Assembly: GCA_964464245.1 (NCBI GenBank)
Contig: CAYXFH010000145.1
Location: 1 to 54,891 of the forward strand
Reading direction: 5' to 3'
DNA length: 54,891 bases
From: an uncultured bacterium
Lineage (GTDB): Bacteria > Caldisericota > JANLFM01
The notes below the pieces were generated by a model. That model was not told the DNA's origin and made no database searches. It was given only the letters and a program-made list of their open reading frames with translations. The position numbers were made by a program, and so were the translations under genes. Of this stretch, positions 23,087 through 53,641 are shown in pieces. Numbering within the stretch: the stretch's first letter is position 1; the number at the start of each line of letters is the position of its first letter.

Positions 23087-24382
23087 CTAGCTGGGTTGCG
23101 GTTTTTCTTTCGCTTTCTCCCAAACAAGATCCAATTCCTCGACGCTCATGTTCGTTGTTTCTTTGCCAATACGGCCGGCGATCTCAACCACGCGCTTGGA
23201 GCGGGCCAGGAACTTATCGATAGAGCGGTGCAGCGCTTCCTCCGGGTTCAAGCGGAGGAAGCGGGAAAGATTGACAAGACTGAAGAGCAGATCGCCAATC
23301 TCCTCTTCGATCTGGTCCGGTTTTTCCCCATGAACCGCTTCCTGCAGTTCCCGCCATTCCTCCCCTACCTTGTCCAGCACACCGGCGCTATCCCGCCAAT
23401 CGAGCCCCTGGAGGGAGGCCGTCTCTTGGATGCGTTCCGCTCGGCTTAGAGCGGGCATGTAACGCCGGGCTTTTTCCTCCCCGTTCCGCTGCTCCTGACT
23501 GTCTTTGATGTCCTCCCACTGCTGCTCTACTCCATCCGGCGACAATTCGCGCCTTTGGTTAAAGACGTGTGGATGACGCTGGACCAGTTTTCGGGTGATG
23601 CGGTGCAAGACCTGGGAAAGGGTAAATTCTTCCTCTTCCTCGGCAATCACAGCATGGAAGACGACCTGCAAGAAGACGTCGCCCAATTCCCCGGCCAATG
23701 CTTCACTGTTCCCCTGGCGCACCGCTTCGATCAATTCCCAGGATTCCTCCAACAAATACTTGGTCAGCGAACGGTGTGTCTGTTGGCGGTCCCAAGGACA
23801 GCGACTGCGCAAGGCGCGCATGATGCGGTTGAACTCTTGAAATCGTTCCCCCTCTTCCGGCTGAGCTCGCAGAAGATGAGGGGTAATCCTCTCTAAGGCG
23901 CAGCGCAAGTCATCGTCCCGGCAACCTTTGATCAAGGCGCCCACGCGTCCTGCCGCTTCACCGAGGGAAATTCCTTGCGCAAGCAAGAAGAAGGAGAGGT
24001 AGGTTGCAGCCAAGGCGCTGCTACGGTCTGAACCGATCAGCACGGGGCGTTCCATCTCCCGCATCAGCAGGAGGAAGTCGAGGAACTGAATCAGGTCAGA
24101 GCGGGAAGGCCAAGGGCCTTCCGGCGGATGCTGGGTCAACTGCTCGAAGCTTGGTCCCCATGATGGGCTGGAACCATCTAAAAGCAGAGCCAAAGAGAAG
24201 ATCCCTTGCTCCTCAAGGCTCTCCCGACTAGGCAAGACTGTCCCCTCCAATAAAGCCACACGTTCAGGCAACAACCAGTGAATAGCCCCCGGCAGCATGA
24301 CAGCCCCCGGCAGCATGACAGCCCCCGGCAGCATGACAGCCCCCGGCAGCATGACAGCCCCCGGCAGGGTGTCCTGGATCAT
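23087..24382 (-). CDS. mazG: MazG-type nucleoside triphosphate pyrophosphohydrolase (tandem MazG domains, YabN-like position) with an unrecognised N-terminal region
   Basis: The C-terminal roughly 240 aa carry two MazG repeats (CPWDRQQTHRSLTKYLLEESWELIEA...ELGDVFLQV and EEWRELQEA...EEIGDLLFSLVNL). The N-terminus begins with (LPGAVM)x4 encoded by an 18-nt tandem repeat. It lies downstream of mfd, as yabN does in Bacillus. Confidence 0.85.
   Translation of the reverse strand: MIQDTLPGAVMLPGAVMLPGAVMLPGAVMLPGAIHWLLPERVALLEGTVLPSRESLEEQGIFSLALLLDGSSPSWGPSFEQLTQHPPEGPWPSRSDLIQFLDFLLLMREMERPVLIGSDRSSALAATYLSFFLLAQGISLGEAAGRVGALIKGCRDDDLRCALERITPHLLRAQPEEGERFQEFNRIMRALRSRCPWDRQQTHRSLTKYLLEESWELIEAVRQGNSEALAGELGDVFLQVVFHAVIAEEEEEFTLSQVLHRITRKLVQRHPHVFNQRRELSPDGVEQQWEDIKDSQEQRNGEEKARRYMPALSRAERIQETASLQGLDWRDSAGVLDKVGEEWRELQEAVHGEKPDQIEEEIGDLLFSLVNLSRFLRLNPEEALHRSIDKFLARSKRVVEIAGRIGKETTNMSVEELDLVWEKAKEKPQPS
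24284..24373. repeat. Five tandem 18-nt units (4x AGCCCCCGGCAGCATGAC plus the terminal variant AGCCCCCGGCAGGGTGTC)
   Basis: Read directly from the sequence. The four full units are perfect and fall in frame within the first 32 codons of the mazG-like gene. Confidence 0.97.
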
Positions 24383-37518: not shown

Positions 37519-37793
37519 TTCCTCTCACCTTCATGTGGAGATTTTCTTACATCATAGCACTCTAGCTTCCCCGCACCACCGTTCTCGCTCTCTTCCGACA
37601 GATGAGAACTCAGCTTTTTACGAACTCGCTTCTCCAGTTGTGAACGGGGCAGTAAAACAAGATGCCCGCAGCCCAAGCAGCGGATGCGAATGTCTGCCCC
37701 CAGCCGGACTACTTCCCAGCGATCTGAGCCGCAGGGGTGCTGCTTTCGCAGGAGCAATAGATCGCCTATGGCCAAAGGCAAAACTGGGCGCAT
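37515..37793 (-). CDS. DUF951 family small protein (YyzM-like, zinc-ribbon-like CxxC)
   Basis: It has GDLLLLRKQHPCGSDRWEVVRLGADIRIRCLGCGHLVLLPRSQLEKRV, which matches the DUF951 pattern. The start overlaps the ftsK stop (TAATG). Confidence 0.75.
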   Translation of the reverse strand: MRPVLPLAIGDLLLLRKQHPCGSDRWEVVRLGADIRIRCLGCGHLVLLPRSQLEKRVRKKLSSHLSEESENGGAGKLECYDVRKSPHEGERK

Positions 37794-39820
37794 TAGAATT
37801 TCAGGGATGACTGATCAGTGTGGCGCAGGATTTGACGTGGTTTGGAACCGCTCGACGGCCCTACGATACCGCGCCGTTCCATGAGATCGATCAGTCGTCC
37901 AGCCCGTGCATAGCCGACCTTCATCTTGCGTTGCAGCATCGAGGCCGAACCTTCCCCGGCTTGCATCACCCATTGCACCGCCTCTTCAAAGAGAGGGTCG
38001 TCCTCTTCTTCCTCCCAATCCTTGCCCTCAGCTTGAAGAATGGGCAGGGGGCGAAGCGGATTGTCCTGGTTCTGTTCTTTCCAGAAGGCGACGACCAGGT
38101 CGATCTCTTCCTCCGAGATGTAAGCGCCTTGAAGGCGGACCGGCTTTGGGTAGTTGACCGGGTAGAAAAGCATGTCACCACGTCCCAACAGCTTTTCTGC
38201 GCCATTCATGTCCAAGATCACGCGGGAGTCCATCTGAGAAGCTACCGCAAAAGCGATGCGAGAGGGGATGTTTGCCTTGATAATGCCGGTGATGACGTCT
38301 GTAGACGGGCGCTGGGTGGCCACGATCAGGTGGATGCCGGTGGCGCGGGCCAATTGGGCCAAACGGATGATGTATTTCTCTACGTCGGCGGGAGCAACCA
38401 TCATAAGGTCAGCCAATTCATCGATCACCACGACATAGTACGGCAATGATTCTCCCAGATCCTGCTCTTTCAACTTCAGGTTATATGCCTCAATATCTCG
38501 CGCCCCTATTTCGGAGAACTTCACCAAACGGCTCTCCATATCGTTGACGATCTCTTTTAAGACGGCCCCTGCTTGCTTCACGTCCATAACTACCGGATAA
38601 AGAAGGTGCGGTAACTCGCGGTAGTTGTAAAGCTCTACCCGTTTTGGGTCGATGAGGACCAAGCGAACTTCATCCGGAGTGGAGCGATAGAGAATGCCGG
38701 ATAGGATGGAGTTGATGCAGACGCTCTTCCCGCTGCCGGTCGCTCCCGCTACGAGGAGGTGAGGCATCTCTCGCAGCTCCCCGACCACAGGATGACCGCT
38801 GATGTCCTTTCCCAAGGTCAGAGGAATGCGGAATTTCCGCCTCACAAAGGCCTCGCTCTCCACGATCTCACGCAAATAGACGATGGAGATCTTCTCCGAA
38901 GGCACTTCGATCCCCAGCACCGATTTCCCGGGGACAGGCGCCTCGATTCGGACACCCGTCGCTGCCAGAGTCAGGGCAATGTCATCGGAAAGGTTCAGAA
39001 TTTTGGAGACCTTCACTCCGGGATCCAGTTGCAGTTCGTAACGCGTGATGGCCGGCCCCACTTCGATATTCACCACGTGCGTGCCGATGCCGAAACTATT
39101 TAACTTGTCCTCCAGGATCTGCGCCACATTGCGTGTTTCCCGCCGGGAGTTCTTGGGGTTCTCTTGAACCGGCCTTCGCAGTAAGTCAAGGGGGGGCAAG
39201 CGATAGGTAGGGGGAACGAGAGAAGTTGACAATTGCGCCTTTTGCTCCAGAGTGGTAGAAATCCTTGAGCGATGCGCCTTGGCCTTCACTTCCTTGGCGT
39301 CTGTCTTAGAAGGCGCCTTCACAGACGAAGCGATTGTCTCCCCCGCCTTAAAGGCCTTGGCTCGCTTTCGTCGCATCTTCCACCAACCCAATAGGCCTGG
39401 CCAGAACAGTGCAGAGAAGCAGGCCAAGAAAAGGAAACACATCAGGAGGTAGGCAATCCACCCAAGGCTATTAAAAATCCCCACCACCCACCAACCCCGG
39501 CTAAGGGAACCAACGATCATCAGTATCAGCAGAGAGCCCAAAACAAAGGTCAACAGGAAACGGGAGCGGCCTTTTTGCAGGTTACGCCAAAGGAGAAAGC
39601 CGATCAGTAGAAAGAAAAAAAAGAGGGGCAGATCCCAAGCCAAGGCGCCCCAGAAGAAGGAAGTTACTCGAGGGAGGTAGTAAGCCAAGACTGCGATGGC
39701 GACAATGCCAAGGATGGCCAGCGCCACCCACAATAGGGCTCGTTCCTGGTGGTGGGGGTCGCGTCGTTTGTCTCCCCCGCTTTTATTTATTTTTTTTCTC
39801 GTTGGTGACGGTGTGGCCAT
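37793..39820 (-). CDS. ftsK: DNA translocase FtsK/SpoIIIE
   Basis: 675 aa. It has N-terminal TM helices, the motor domain with Walker A LLVAGATGSGKS and VVVIDELADLM, and a C-terminal gamma winged helix (SASMLQRKMKVGYARAGRLID). Confidence 0.95.
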   Translation of the reverse strand: MATPSPTRKKINKSGGDKRRDPHHQERALLWVALAILGIVAIAVLAYYLPRVTSFFWGALAWDLPLFFFFLLIGFLLWRNLQKGRSRFLLTFVLGSLLILMIVGSLSRGWWVVGIFNSLGWIAYLLMCFLFLACFSALFWPGLLGWWKMRRKRAKAFKAGETIASSVKAPSKTDAKEVKAKAHRSRISTTLEQKAQLSTSLVPPTYRLPPLDLLRRPVQENPKNSRRETRNVAQILEDKLNSFGIGTHVVNIEVGPAITRYELQLDPGVKVSKILNLSDDIALTLAATGVRIEAPVPGKSVLGIEVPSEKISIVYLREIVESEAFVRRKFRIPLTLGKDISGHPVVGELREMPHLLVAGATGSGKSVCINSILSGILYRSTPDEVRLVLIDPKRVELYNYRELPHLLYPVVMDVKQAGAVLKEIVNDMESRLVKFSEIGARDIEAYNLKLKEQDLGESLPYYVVVIDELADLMMVAPADVEKYIIRLAQLARATGIHLIVATQRPSTDVITGIIKANIPSRIAFAVASQMDSRVILDMNGAEKLLGRGDMLFYPVNYPKPVRLQGAYISEEEIDLVVAFWKEQNQDNPLRPLPILQAEGKDWEEEEDDPLFEEAVQWVMQAGEGSASMLQRKMKVGYARAGRLIDLMERRGIVGPSSGSKPRQILRHTDQSSLKF

Positions 39821-41762
39821 GCAGCCTCTCTTCCGCCTTCACGCCGGCTTTTCTCTGGGAGACTCGCTTCTCCGTCTGGCGCTTCTCACCCTTCCCTTTA
39901 GCGACCTTCGTTGAAGTCCTTCCCGCCCGCATCTTTCCTTTGCCCGCCGTTGGGGTTCCAGGCGCTGCTTTCCCGAGAAGAAGGGGAGGGGAGTCAGCTT
40001 TCGGTGCGACTGCTAGGTGGGGCGACGCATGCGTCGCCCCACCTAGCTCCTCCTTCAACTTCTGCGCATGGTTCCGCTGTGATGATGGAAGGATCGGACC
40101 GCCACCCTCCAGCACGCTAACCAGGACCAGGGGGCGTCGCTTCAGTCTCTTTGCTAGGAAGCGTTCGGTTTGTTCCTGAATCTTCTCCTCAATTCGTAGT
40201 AGGGGCGACGCATGCGTCGCCCCACCCTCTTCCTCGATCATCTTCCGCAGGAGGGCAGTGATCTGATCGTGCAGAAGGATCTTCCAGACAAGCCAGTCCT
40301 TCTCTTGGAGAAGGCCGCGGGTGATAAAAAGGGGACCGCTGAAGATTTTCCTCGCATCTAGGGAGACTACTGCCGCCACTACTAGCACTCCTTCTTGAGC
40401 GAGAGCCCGACGGTCCTCGATCACTTCACTTTTCACCTCGTCAATACAGATGCCGTCGACAAAATTGGGAGCGCTCGCCACTTTTCCCTGCACATATGCT
40501 CGCCCTGGTGTAAAACTGACCATATCTCCGTTCTCCAGTAAAAGGACATTTTCCTGGCGGATGCCCATCTCTTGGGCGAGGCGGCTGCTCCAGACAAGGT
40601 GCCTATATTCCCCGTGGATTGGGATGAAGTAACGTGGACGACTGATCTGCAGCATTGTCTTGATATCCTCGCGGAAAGCGTGGCCGGAAACGTGGACACC
40701 GGCCTGAGTGCCATAGATGACCTCGGCTTTGAGGCGAAAGAGATTGTTGATCGTCTCTGACACCAATCGTTCGTTTCCGGGAATGGGGTCAGCCGAGAAG
40801 ATCACTGTGTCGCCTGCCTCGATCTTGATCTTGCGATGCTCCCCAGTTGCAATGCGAGAAAGGGCGGAGAGTGGCTCCCCTTGGCTGCCGGTGGTGATGA
40901 TCACCAACTGATCACGAGGGAAGAGAGAGAGATCCTCTACTTTGATCAGTTGTCCCTCCGGTATATTCAGATACCCCAGCTCCTGAGCCGTATTGACCAC
41001 ACGCGTCATAGACATCCCGTCAATAGCCACTTTCCGGTTGAACAAGGCTGCGGTCTCAATGATCTGCTGAATTCTGTGCACGTTGGAAGCAAAGGTAGTG
41101 ACGATGATGCGATTGCGAGCTTTCTCGAAAATCCGTTCAAGACCTGGTTTTACTGTCCGCTCCGAGGATGCGAAACCTGGCTTCTCGGCGTTGGTGGAGT
41201 CACAAAGCAGACAAAGGACGCCATCAGCGGTGATCTTGGCGAAACGCTCGAAGTCGAAAGGCTTTCCTCCCACTGGTGTTTTGTCGAACTTGAAATCGCC
41301 GGAATGGACGATCATCCCGAGCGGGGTTCGAATTGCCAGGCCCAGCCCGCCAGGCACACTGTGGGTTACCGGCAGCAATTCCACCTGAAAAGGACCGAAG
41401 GGGAGCCGGTCACCTGGCTTGACCGTGTGAAGATCCATTTTCACCCCCAGTTCTTTAGCCCGTCCGGCGGTCAACCCGAGAGTGATATCGGTGCCGTAAA
41501 CGGGAACAGAGAGTTGTTGCAAGAGGTAGGGCACCGCACCAACATGGTCCTCGTGGCCATGAGTCAGGATAATCCCGGCAATTCGTTTCTGGTTGGCCAA
41601 CAAATAGGTAAAATCCGGGAGGATCAGATCCACGCCGGGTGTTTTTTCATCAGGAAACTTCACCCCGGCATCGATTAGGAGCATCGTTCCGCTCATCTCC
41701 AAGGCCATCATGTTTTTTCCGATCTCCCCCAGCCCACCGAGCGCAACAAGTTTAAGCTCCAA
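39783..41762 (-). CDS. rnj: Ribonuclease J with a roughly 100-aa Lys/Gly/Ala/Pro-rich C-terminal extension
   Basis: I chose the start at TTG 41762, 6 nt after AAGGAGG (M-ELKLVALGGLGEIGKNMM). It has the metallo-beta-lactamase motif THGHEDHVGA, a beta-CASP region, and a C-terminal domain ending RRPLVLVSVLE. A basic tail follows, and its last 38 nt overlap ftsK. Confidence 0.9.
   Translation of the reverse strand: MELKLVALGGLGEIGKNMMALEMSGTMLLIDAGVKFPDEKTPGVDLILPDFTYLLANQKRIAGIILTHGHEDHVGAVPYLLQQLSVPVYGTDITLGLTAGRAKELGVKMDLHTVKPGDRLPFGPFQVELLPVTHSVPGGLGLAIRTPLGMIVHSGDFKFDKTPVGGKPFDFERFAKITADGVLCLLCDSTNAEKPGFASSERTVKPGLERIFEKARNRIIVTTFASNVHRIQQIIETAALFNRKVAIDGMSMTRVVNTAQELGYLNIPEGQLIKVEDLSLFPRDQLVIITTGSQGEPLSALSRIATGEHRKIKIEAGDTVIFSADPIPGNERLVSETINNLFRLKAEVIYGTQAGVHVSGHAFREDIKTMLQISRPRYFIPIHGEYRHLVWSSRLAQEMGIRQENVLLLENGDMVSFTPGRAYVQGKVASAPNFVDGICIDEVKSEVIEDRRALAQEGVLVVAAVVSLDARKIFSGPLFITRGLLQEKDWLVWKILLHDQITALLRKMIEEEGGATHASPLLRIEEKIQEQTERFLAKRLKRRPLVLVSVLEGGGPILPSSQRNHAQKLKEELGGATHASPHLAVAPKADSPPLLLGKAAPGTPTAGKGKMRAGRTSTKVAKGKGEKRQTEKRVSQRKAGVKAEERLHGHTVTNEKKNK
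40013..40046. repeat. 34-bp perfect palindrome CTAGGTGGGGCGACGCATGCGTCGCCCCACCTAG inside the rnj tail
   Basis: I verified by hand that the reverse complement equals the sequence. It encodes ELGGATHASPHLA. Confidence 0.97.
40202..40223. repeat. Second copy of the 22-bp palindromic core GGGGCGACGCATGCGTCGCCCC inside the rnj C-terminal domain
   Basis: The 22-bp core is identical to the one in the 40013 copy, with 26 of 28 nt identical including flanks. It encodes EEGGATHASPLL. Confidence 0.97.
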
Positions 41763-42342
41763 GGAGCGCCTCCTTTTCCACCAGCAGGCGCAGGGTATGA
41801 AAGTCAAGTGACAACTCTACCTTCACTTGCGAGTTGCGCAGAGCAGCAGCGGGGTGAAAAGTGGGGAAGAAGAGGATCCCGTCTTTGCGGAAGATCTTCC
41901 CGTGGACAGTAGAAATGCTCCAATCCGGGTCAAGCAATGTGTGCAGTGAGTGTCGCCCTAGGATGCAAACCAGCGCAGGGGCGACCAGGCCAATCTGGGC
42001 AATTAAGTATGGGTGGCAGGCTTCAACCTCGTCCGGTAGAGGGTCACGGTTCTCGGGAGGACGACACTTGACGATATTCGTTATGTAGACTTGTTCCCGT
42101 TTCAAGCCCAAAGCGCTCTGAATGAGGCTCTCCAGAAGTACTCCAGCTGGGCCGACAAAAGGCCGTCCCTGCTGGTCTTCCCGTTGTCCGGGTCCTTCCC
42201 CCACGAACAGAAGGGGGGAATAAAGATCGCCTTCACCCGGCACAACCTGTAAGCGCATCTCGCAAAGACGACACTTTCGGCAGGCCAGGATCTCCTTCCT
42301 TAAACTGGGGTATAGTTCTTCCCTACCGTCCGGTATGACCAA
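41752..42342 (-). CDS. udg: Uracil-DNA glycosylase, family 4 (4Fe-4S type)
   Basis: 196 aa with CRKCRLCEMRLQVVPGEGDLYSPLLFVGEGPGQREDQQGRPFVGPAG and HPAAALR. Confidence 0.9.
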   Translation of the reverse strand: MVIPDGREELYPSLRKEILACRKCRLCEMRLQVVPGEGDLYSPLLFVGEGPGQREDQQGRPFVGPAGVLLESLIQSALGLKREQVYITNIVKCRPPENRDPLPDEVEACHPYLIAQIGLVAPALVCILGRHSLHTLLDPDWSISTVHGKIFRKDGILFFPTFHPAAALRNSQVKVELSLDFHTLRLLVEKEALLGA

Positions 42343-52267: not shown

Positions 52268-53641
52268 TCAACGAGAATGGAAGAGAGTTACGGGATCCCT
52301 ATCAAGTAGGCGGAGGATCCCGATTGGGGTTTGCTCGACATCCTGACCAAGAGGATTGTCTTTCATCAAAGCCAATACGATCCGCTTGTCCGCTCCGCGT
52401 GATGCGCCGCAAATTTCACATCCGCCGATGTCGTTGACGTCTAATATGGCTACCCGGCATCCGAAGAGTTGGTCCATCTCCTGACAGACTCGAGCGGGTT
52501 CTTTTGGCCCCAACACCGCGTGACCACGCAACATCCCATAAGGAGCGTCTCCGTCGATCCATGCTGCTTGCCGCCCGGCTACTCGGTAGAAAAGACCCTT
52601 GATCCCCAGCAGTTTCCCCACTGCACCGAAGGCTGCAGCCAGGAGAATGCGCCAAGTACCGCACTCGTGTAAGGCCAACTGCATGGTCAGAGGGCTGCCC
52701 AGGCCGATCCCATGAGGAGTCTTCGTTACCTTCCCGGCCAGCCAAATAGCTAAGCGAGTGGGGTGGATTGACTCGGAGGGAACCAGGCGGTTCTGGGTAG
52801 CGGCAACCATCTTCTCAGAGAGAACCAATGTGTCGCTCGATTGGAGGAATTTCCCGGCATACCTTGCCACTTGTTCCTGTAAGCCATCAGGAGGCTTGAT
52901 CTCGTGGGTGCGGATAGGGATCCTTATGTACGCATGCGTGTCAACGGTAAGGATAGCTTCACGCAGCATGGGGACAGATTTGAAATCTGTCCCCATGCTG
53001 CGGCAGGTCTGATCGTCTCCCACAGGAAAAACTTCCTCTCCTTCTGGGCGCTTGTGGAAGCGACGCTTGGCTTCCTCTTTCAACTCCTTGCCTTCCGGAG
53101 TTTGGAAAATGCGGATCACGTAGATCGCACCGGTGTAAAGGTAGATGGCGAAACAGATGTAAAAGAGGAGAACGGCATAAGGGACTTCGATGACCACCAG
53201 AGCAAGGCTCAACATAAAAAGACCGGTGGAGAACTTGCCGACTTTGGTTTCGGTGAGGATCCGCTTGTGTTGGGCGGTGAGGATGAACATGGTGATGAGT
53301 AGGATCAAGTCTCGCGCAGCGAAGAAGGCGAAGATACTCCAAGGCAGATACTGGGCAATACATAAGGAAATGAAAGCGGCGCCACCCAAGAGCTTATCGG
53401 CAGTGGGGTCAAGGATCTTTCCGAGCCTGCTCTCTTGCTTGAACCGGCGCGCCAGATAGCCGTCCAAATAATCGGAGAAGGTGGCCAAGAGGATGACCAG
53501 GAAAGCCGCCAGCGAATTTCGCGCAAGGATAAAGATGACCAACGGCGCCACGGCTGCCAGACGGAAGATGGTGAGTAGATTGGGGATCGTCAACACCTCA
53601 AATACGCTTCGCCTTTCGTTTGATTCCTTGTACGAGCCCAT
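52268..53641 (-). CDS. Fusion ORF: N-terminal CDP-alcohol phosphatidyltransferase (PgsA-like) plus C-terminal CofE-like (F420-0:gamma-glutamyl ligase family) domain
   Basis: 457 aa. The N-terminus has IPNLLTIFRL and DYLDGYLARRFKQESRLGKILDPTADKLL (the D-G-x2-A-R...G-x3-D-x3-D motif) plus TM helices. The C-terminus has LVLSEKMVAATQNRLV and DNPLGQDVEQTPIGILR, which resemble the F420_ligase family. An alternative start is GTG at 53596. Confidence 0.65.
   Translation of the reverse strand: MGSYKESNERRSVFEVLTIPNLLTIFRLAAVAPLVIFILARNSLAAFLVILLATFSDYLDGYLARRFKQESRLGKILDPTADKLLGGAAFISLCIAQYLPWSIFAFFAARDLILLITMFILTAQHKRILTETKVGKFSTGLFMLSLALVVIEVPYAVLLFYICFAIYLYTGAIYVIRIFQTPEGKELKEEAKRRFHKRPEGEEVFPVGDDQTCRSMGTDFKSVPMLREAILTVDTHAYIRIPIRTHEIKPPDGLQEQVARYAGKFLQSSDTLVLSEKMVAATQNRLVPSESIHPTRLAIWLAGKVTKTPHGIGLGSPLTMQLALHECGTWRILLAAAFGAVGKLLGIKGLFYRVAGRQAAWIDGDAPYGMLRGHAVLGPKEPARVCQEMDQLFGCRVAILDVNDIGGCEICGASRGADKRIVLALMKDNPLGQDVEQTPIGILRLLDRDPVTLFHSR
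52961..53001. repeat. 41-bp perfect palindrome (20-bp arms, 1-nt centre) CGCAGCATGGGGACAGATTT-G-AAATCTGTCCCCATGCTGCG
   Basis: I verified the arms by hand. It lies in the linker between the two domains of the fusion ORF and encodes RSMGTDFKSVPMLR. Confidence 0.97.

Follow-up and report, generated by a model that had tools for sequence, protein, structure and literature searches.

In-frame palindromes in the RNase J gene of an uncultured Caldisericota bacterium as probable insertions of a GTAG-footed REP element

The DNA analyzed here (the window) comprises 54,891 nucleotides of contig CAYXFH010000145.1, from assembly GCA_964464245.1 of an uncultured bacterium placed in Caldisericota, JANLFM01. 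Its minus strand carries rnj, an open reading frame (ORF) of 674 codons (39783..41807) whose product is identified as RNase J by its Pfam beta-CASP, RMMBL, and RNase_J_C domains and by its match to Bacillus subtilis RNase J1 (PDB 3zq4; E = 3e-148). Two exact copies of a palindromic 22-mer, GGGGCGACGCATGCGTCGCCCC, are present in the window, at 40019-40040 and 40202-40223, and both lie within rnj. No further match with up to three mismatches was found in the window, and none appeared in 100 shuffles. With each 22-mer extended to the 28-bp repetitive extragenic palindromic (REP) unit described below, the locus contains the following features:

40199..40226, REP site 1 (upstream in the gene); 28-mer on the plus strand, GTAGGGGCGACGCATGCGTCGCCCCACC
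40016..40043, REP site 2 (downstream in the gene); 28-mer GGTGGGGCGACGCATGCGTCGCCCCACC
40013..40016, left CTAG of the duplicated target (TA or CTAG duplication), from the comparison of filled and empty site 2
40043..40046, right CTAG of the duplicated target, from the same comparison
39783..41762, minus strand, coding sequence of rnj (RNase J), 659 amino acids (start as in database protein P0002) and the stop codon
39786..40106, minus strand, C-terminal extension of RNase J, about 107 amino acids, Lys-rich and lineage specific, with site 2 in its first third
37793..39820, minus strand, ftsK, with FtsK_alpha, FtsK_SpoIIIE, and FtsK_gamma domains

The boundary of the element is ambiguous: a 28-bp reading implies duplication of TA and a 26-bp reading duplication of CTAG. 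Positions 40016 and 40043 are thus counted in both the element and its target. The downstream gene is ftsK, and the start of its ORF overlaps the 3' end of rnj by 38 nt.

Both copies are read in frame. At site 1, the peptide GGATHASPL is located in a loop between two helices of the RNase J C-terminal domain; one foot of the palindrome is the canonical GTAG, and the other is mutated (CACC in place of CTAC). At site 2, the peptide GGATHASPH occupies the linker between the canonical end of RNase J and the Lys-rich tail, and both feet carry the same symmetric variant, GGTG/CACC. Most of the geometry given by the initial annotation of this DNA holds: the two 22-bp cores are exact, 26 of 28 nt are identical when 3-nt flanks are included, and ORF translation gives GGATHASP in both cases. 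The perfect 34-bp palindrome that it placed at 40013-40046 is in fact longer, spanning 36 bp (40012-40047) with an 18-bp stem that encloses the copy at 40019-40040. Its spacing of 189 nt (63 codons) needs correction, because it was measured from the beginning of the 34-mer to that of the 22-mer; when the two cores are compared in register, the distance is 183 nt (61 codons). Alignment to 3zq4 agrees with its statement that the upstream copy interrupts the C-terminal domain. The downstream copy does lie past the normal end of RNase J, since 3zq4 ends at query residue 567 and the proteins of other genera end 10 to 15 residues after the RRP motif.

Comparison of orthologous sequences, which had been proposed as a check, indicates that both rnj copies are insertions. 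The RNase J proteins of four other genera in the family lack GGATHASP altogether. Within the genus, the genome designated G003 has an empty site 2, GGAGGAG-CTAG-CAGTCG. The same position reads ...CTAG-TAGGGGCGACGCATGCGTCGCCCCTA-CTAG... in G001, the canonical GTAG...CTAC form, and ...CTAG-GTGGGGCGACGCATGCGTCGCCCCAC-CTAG... in the genome under study (G000). At site 2, the palindromic hexamer GCTAGC has been cleanly interrupted by 30 bp, with duplication of TA if the element is 28 bp or of CTAG if it is 26 bp. Since the target is itself palindromic, the entire insert reads as a 36-bp palindrome. In G002, the remaining genus member, and in the database sequences P0003 and P0004, this position is occupied by 18 unrelated nt; therefore, the state of G003 may be either ancestral or the result of a precise loss. 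The copy at site 1 is shared with G001 and G003. It is absent from G002, P0003, P0004, and the other genera, all of which are 6 residues shorter at this point; the first three read MIE(D/E)K(V/S)(N/T)LERIEEK and equal the other genera in length. The boundary of this insert is ragged, with about 12 nt seemingly swapped for 30 nt (net +18 nt, or 6 residues). In the alignment to 3zq4, it is the sole gapped stretch of the C-terminal domain and falls between two helices, a placement that rests on this alignment and on helices assigned from published RNase J structures. G002, P0003, and P0004 thus lack both copies and G003 lacks site 2, and all keep the same rnj-ftsK arrangement. The Lys-rich extension is conserved and kept open, with in-frame indels, in the four genus genomes, P0003, and P0004 (6 sequences). 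It is missing from RNase J proteins of other genera and of all PDB entries, which end near residue 567-580. As it is present in all genus members, P0003, and P0004, the extension probably predates the REP insertion.

The 22-mer belongs to a dispersed family in its own genome, which comprises 1.68 Mb in 183 contigs with 58% G+C and is about 81% complete. A genome-wide count, also among the checks proposed, gave 4 exact copies, 12 when one mismatch is allowed, and 24 when four are. Alignment of these copies identifies GGGGCGACGCATGCGTCGCCCC as the core of a 28-bp palindromic unit, GTAGGGGCGACGCATGCGTCGCCCCTAC, beyond which the flanks are unrelated. The unit is perfectly palindromic, with a stem of 12 bp closed by a 4-nt loop (predicted DNA fold of -14.6 kcal/mol, z = -7), with the family consensus GTAG...CTAC and the structure GTAG-GGG...CCC-CTAC. 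Variants mostly keep the dyad symmetry, such as GGGGCGCGGCATGCCGCGCCCC on contig C48 and GCAGTGGCGACGCCTGCGTCGCCACTGC in murG. The 24 copies are spread over 21 contigs, most of them between ORFs or at ORF ends and 5 to 8 inside coding sequence, with some local clustering (three pairs less than 400 nt apart versus 0.13 expected; P about 3e-4). All copies in coding sequence or last codons use the VGATHASPL frame; a second frame of the 28-mer is open (RGDACVAPT), and the third holds a TAG. CTAG adjoins about 9 of the 24 copies, mainly those attached to arrays of an 18-nt repeat, and no general rule for a target motif could be derived from the sequences around the 24 copies. The family has the hallmarks of GTAG-tagged REPs, namely, a short palindromic stem-loop, GTAG at the stem foot in the consensus, and multiple dispersed, mainly extragenic copies, with the feet of the two rnj copies partly mutated as described above. 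Classical REPs exceed 100 copies per genome, and 24 is low by comparison.

Among 41 related genomes, the family is restricted to three of the four genus members (16 copies in G000, 21 in G001, and 17 in G003, with up to 2 mismatches); no copy was found in G002, the most divergent of the four, or in the 37 other relatives. The exact 22-mer nevertheless occurs in at least 120 stretches when one genome per species is considered. The hosts among the matches listed include Chloroflexota, Planctomycetota, Acidobacteriota, Binatia, Gemmatimonadota, several Proteobacteria, the candidate phyla radiation (CPR), and others. Among these listed matches, 64 of the 83 that were readable have the same GTA/TAC flanks and are therefore the identical 28-mer. 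The 17 genomes that we examined whole (G001, G003, and 15 from other phyla) hold 6 to 156 copies each. Loci reached via the exact 22-mer form a sample biased toward perfect copies. In some genomes, there are stem-compensated subfamilies, such as GAGGCATGCCTC and GACACATGTGTC in G053.

Other loci in the genus also record gain, loss, and decay. At the 3' end of murG, the element is present in the genome under study and in G001, G003 lacks exactly 27 nt, and G002 retains a decayed copy, CAGGGGCGCGTCATGCTGTTCCCCTAC; given this decayed copy and the two filled sites, the G003 copy was most likely lost precisely. An internal murG copy, in frame in the genome under study, is found in all four genus genomes, equal in length and decayed differently in each. 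A DEAD-box helicase gene (contig C30) contains an in-frame REP in the genome under study and in G003 and none in G001, where the linker differs and leaves no clean footprint. In G003, an rpoN-like gene has a 57-nt in-frame insert, consisting of a REP and an 18-mer unit, that is absent from the genome under study. A further in-frame copy lies in a gene for an exported protein (C93). When 34 loci of G001 and G003 were compared with the genome under study, most differences were composite, combining a REP with an 18-mer unit or involving extended stems, rather than clean.

A candidate cognate enzyme is provided by tyrosine transposases that are associated with REPs (RAYTs). A RAYT search of REP-bearing genomes revealed the REP inside the RAYT gene itself at several loci. 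In one of them (L186), the ORF reads ...MPNHIHGIIVITGSD-VGATHASPL-RGAS...WQRNYYEHVIR...YIIYNP and includes the canonical 28-mer, read in frame, along with the motifs NHIH, WQRNYYEH, and YIIYNP. A tblastn search with the L186 protein recovered the same architecture at L183, L134, L081, L093, L075, L137, L184, and L025. At least nine genes, from several phyla and from the genus itself, carry an in-frame internal REP, mostly as VGATHASPL. The gene from the same genus (L025, contig C80 of G001) is an intact 184-amino-acid ORF containing the 28-mer, with the motifs NHVH, WQRNYYEH, and YIESNP and a Pfam Y1_Tnp score of 30.7 bits (cut-off, 23). A homolog of the L186-type transposase is present in 10 of the 15 other REP-bearing genomes. 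That one exact 28-mer is common to many phyla is likely due to its riding inside its transposase gene. REP copies are found upstream of, within, and downstream of the transposase gene at L226, a REPtron-like arrangement. Similar clusters were seen at L227, from a metagenome-assembled genome (MAG) of Deferrisomatales (G052), where 16 copies lie within 1.9 kb (590-2420) around and inside a tnpA_REP gene of subclass 2.4, and at L134 (2580-3700), with the same REP.

These enzymes and their REP agree with TnpA_REP subclass 2.4, equivalent to RAYT group 4, which is defined by the motifs NH[IFV]H, WQ, and YIxNNP (Quentin 2018, PMC6006769). The REPs of this subclass are of canonical long and "double foot" types with 5' GT[AG]G and 3' C[TC]AC, and it is unique in having REPs in frame inside its own tnpA_REP gene, in the stretch that separates HuH from Y. 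The same paper mentions unrelated genes with REP insertions (PMC6006769). The family described here shares the enzyme motifs, the long double-foot REP whose stem base consists of three G-C pairs, and the scattering over many phyla. It differs in that the genome under study lacks an intact cognate gene and in that most copies there are singletons rather than dimers or clusters. On the NCBIfam model REP_Tyr_transpos, the enzymes described here score 63 to 67 bits, under its 80-bit cut-off.

We consider it probable, at about 0.85, that the rnj palindromes are copies of the 28-bp double-foot GTAG REP of TnpA_REP subclass 2.4 or RAYT group 4 type, present as tolerated selfish insertions. This is the first of the readings offered by the initial annotation, that of a small mobile palindrome which coding DNA tolerates, and it is upheld by the dispersed family, by presence and absence at orthologous sites, and by a cognate transposase. 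The counterevidence that the initial annotation had named, a 22-mer found nowhere else and orthologs that keep the same residues, is contradicted on both counts. If it acts as TnpA_REP and IS200/IS605 enzymes do in published biochemical work, the HUH/Y1 enzyme would recognize the hairpin and GTAG foot on single-stranded DNA, cut, and rejoin the element elsewhere, favoring small palindromic targets such as GCTAGC. Within genes, an insertion would be expected to survive only if it lengthens the gene by a multiple of 3 nt and is not read in the TAG frame. The additions here, 30 nt for site 2 and 18 nt net for site 1, are read as a small flexible peptide, GGATHASP(L/H), and both sites are indel tolerant, one being a surface interhelix loop of the C-terminal domain and the other the linker before the Lys-rich tail. 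The copies are best seen as selfish passengers that RNase J tolerates, probably at little cost, and not as parts of its function.

Several observations weigh against this interpretation. The genome under study, at 81% completeness, has no L025 ortholog and no intact cognate transposase. It does contain two RAYT-like genes, on C109 (94.6 bits on REP_Tyr_transpos, above the cut-off of 80) and C71 (62 bits), and no GTAGGGGCGACGCATGCGTCGCCCCTAC REP was found beside either. Contig C74 carries two truncated, subclass-2.4-like tnpA_REP remnants (459->193 and 3925->3663). No subclass 2.4 homolog (E <= 1e-5) was detected in 5 of the 15 other REP-bearing genomes. A clean footprint is seen for a single insertion; the boundaries are ragged at site 1 and at the helicase site, and the lengths vary (27, 30, and net 18 nt). 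Stem-preserving symmetric changes, described below, allow for selection on the hairpin and so for a departure from strict neutrality. Finally, we know of no system in which REP transposition has been demonstrated in vivo.

Some of these loci have features of their own. The C74 remnants carry a sister GTAG REP, GGGGCGGGTTTxAAACCCGCCCC, of which there are about 45 copies in the genome under study, and their homology stops right after it, as if the REP were the breakpoint. The RAYT gene of C109 (L001 1015-1950, minus strand) is flanked by inverted repeats, GGGGTCAGATCTTTA and TAAAGATCTGACCCC, resembling half of the TGGGGACAGATTT-N-AAATCTGTCCCCA palindrome family discussed below. The five homolog-free genomes (G041, G043, G046, G047, and G051, reached via L060, L084, L114, L120, and L067) hold 10 to 156 copies of the 28-mer; G051, with 156 copies, has other RAYT types only.

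Several orthologous copies differ in both arms of the stem at once. At rnj site 2, G001 has GTAG/CTAC and the genome under study has GGTG/CACC (window 40016-40043 versus L004); at the 3' end of murG, it is the genome under study that has GTAG/CTAC, and G001 has ATAG/CTAT (G000 C143:8757-8784 versus L220). The internal murG copy is symmetric in the genome under study and asymmetric in G003. Independent mutation is unlikely to give matching changes in two arms. The palindrome evolves in concert in situ, and the pattern points to hairpin-templated correction or to a stem under selection. Retention of the stem in this manner is what would be expected if the hairpins were under selection as RNA or DNA structures acting in cis within the rnj-ftsK transcript, whether as RNase barriers or entry signals (for RNase J itself among others), as stabilizers, or as a long-range pairing switch for the 3' part of rnj and ftsK. 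Folding of the region, another of the proposed checks, does predict strong hairpins, the DNA of the site 2 palindrome folding at -22.4 kcal/mol (z = -8.4) and that of site 1 at -12.2 kcal/mol. The 321-nt RNA fold has a z score of -3.6, with two local hairpins in the minimum free energy structure and a duplex between the copies in the centroid, and effects of REPs on mRNA stability in other bacteria are reported in PMC3733652. Yet the same element occupies about 22 unrelated sites in this genome and occurs in many phyla, the rnj-ftsK arrangement is unchanged in relatives without one or both copies, and both copies lie within a translated ORF. No T-run follows the hairpins, a search of Rfam with the region returned only a chance-level miRNA match (E = 0.85), and stem retention would also follow from hairpin-templated repair or transposase recognition. 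Selected structures of this kind are therefore an unlikely explanation. The idea, already present in the initial annotation, of mRNA hairpins modulating rnj and ftsK survives as far as the predicted hairpins go; nothing about them is specific to rnj, and close relatives do without one or both copies. Decidedly unlikely as well is a version in which a REP has been domesticated for autoregulation, the copies being kept as structured mRNA elements, either two hairpins or a duplex enclosing 160 nt, that set the processing or stability of rnj-ftsK. If this were true, the symmetric differences between orthologs would be compensatory evolution, and the target mRNA would be that of RNase J, the cell's own 5'-3' exonuclease and endonuclease.

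The perfect dyad symmetry and the central GCATGC also suggested a recognition site for a restriction-modification system or a dimeric regulator. However, the center varies while pairing is kept, with GGATGC, GCTTGC, and GCGTGC in the genome under study and ACATGT and GAGGCATGCCTC subfamilies in G053, and the genome shows no enrichment of GCATGC (354 occurrences versus about 525 expected). For these two reasons, we reject the methylase site put forward in the initial annotation. Moreover, the conserved portion is the whole 28-mer, including the GTAG feet, and the element lies inside a transposase gene and in clusters around it, which makes a restriction-modification or regulator site centered on GCATGC very improbable. 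An assembly or library artifact, or a native duplicated RNase J peptide motif that is palindromic by chance, is hardly credible. All 22-mer records in the collection scan were MAGs, among the matches listed, which would fit an artifact, but the copies sit at orthologous positions in three independent assemblies, each with its own point differences. The reading frame is kept, the copies lie in the interior of contigs, and complete chromosomes carry the element as well. A native peptide motif is at odds with the identical DNA in intergenic sites and unrelated genes and with the absence of these residues from RNase J outside the clade.

Three classes of element or signal were considered and rejected. 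A miniature inverted-repeat transposable element would measure 70 to 300 bp, with terminal inverted repeats of 15 to 30 bp, versus a unit of only 28 bp with unrelated flanks; there is also no fixed duplication, with TA or CTAG at one site and a 27-nt footprint without duplication at another. A Rickettsia palindromic element (RPE) or CGTC-tagged REP does not match the GTAG tag and the 28-bp unit. An intrinsic terminator is contradicted by the absence of a T-run after either copy on the coding strand and by the position of both copies inside an open frame.

Among the known systems, intragenic REPs provide the closest precedent outside the transposase genes. GTAG-tagged REPs have been described inside genes, in frame and at times twice per ORF, and REPs insert into small palindromic targets, with most copies at 3' gene ends (Di Nocera 2013, PMC3733652). 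The family studied here resembles the intragenic GTAG and CGTC REPs of that survey in all these respects, including the in-frame position in housekeeping genes. The genes singled out in the survey belonged to DNA replication and repair, with a few RNA-related ones, whereas here the host is a small-genome uncultured lineage and the gene encodes RNase J. Neither GATHASP nor RNase J is listed in the supplementary tables of PMC3733652, and the 28-mer and 22-mer were not found in the searchable full-text literature. RNase J is likewise missing from the searchable text of both PMC6006769 and PMC3733652. RPEs offer another parallel, as selfish palindromic DNA that adds surface peptides in frame to essential proteins. 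RPE-1 is about 100 to 150 bp long; the element described here, at 28 bp and GTAG tagged, represents a separate family. The CGTC-tagged superfamily includes RPE-4 and RPE-6 (PMC3733652). With the Pseudomonas REPIN/RAYT and Escherichia coli REP/BIME systems, the family shares a GTAG-footed hairpin that a single-copy HUH Y1 enzyme recognizes, and spread within genomes. Those systems involve RAYT groups 2 and 3 and inverted doublets with spacers that are almost strictly extragenic, unlike the single perfect palindrome seen here, which is possibly a collapsed doublet and is repeatedly intragenic.

Other repeats accompany this family in the same genome. A second palindrome family, TGGGGACAGATTT-N-AAATCTGTCCCCA, is present in the window at 52962-53002 and has 62 copies genome-wide (e.g., C155:1389-1441 and C26:1981-2031). 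The flanks of each copy lengthen the palindrome with unique sequence, giving stems of up to 26 bp, and the family looks like one that inserts into the centers of preexisting hairpins or palindromes. An 18-nt unit, CTGCCGGGGGCTATCAAG, forms tandem arrays (338 units in 214 arrays genome-wide; in the window at 24278-24367, 26960, and 28575) with a conserved 5' cap, (C)AGAACACC. GTAG REPs of the GTAGGGGCGACGCATGCGTCGCCCCTAC and GCGGGTTT families sometimes end these arrays on the 3' side, at ...GGGGGCTA^ (C86, C94, C175, C79/C55, and C31:20161). Long perfect inverted repeats with stems of 27 to 31 bp and a common TGGGGTCACATCTTCATATGTCAC (G000 C147:978-1040, C81:2049-2109, and C171:15243-15300) may represent another MITE-like family.

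In-frame intragenic REPs were already published in 2013 and 2018, and the rnj case belongs to this documented class, with no new mechanism. Its interpretation as a REP insertion accounts for an odd feature of an essential RNA-decay gene by a documented class of selfish DNA and tells annotators that GGATHASP-type inserts are REP encoded. It also adds natural data on the movement of the element: a rare clean pair of filled and empty sites, with 30 bp inserted into GCTAGC and a TA or CTAG duplication, and the 27-nt gap at the 3' end of murG as evidence for precise loss. The symmetric arm changes are a natural record of hairpin-templated correction or of selection on the stem. At the level of the family, one exact 28-mer is common to many phyla.

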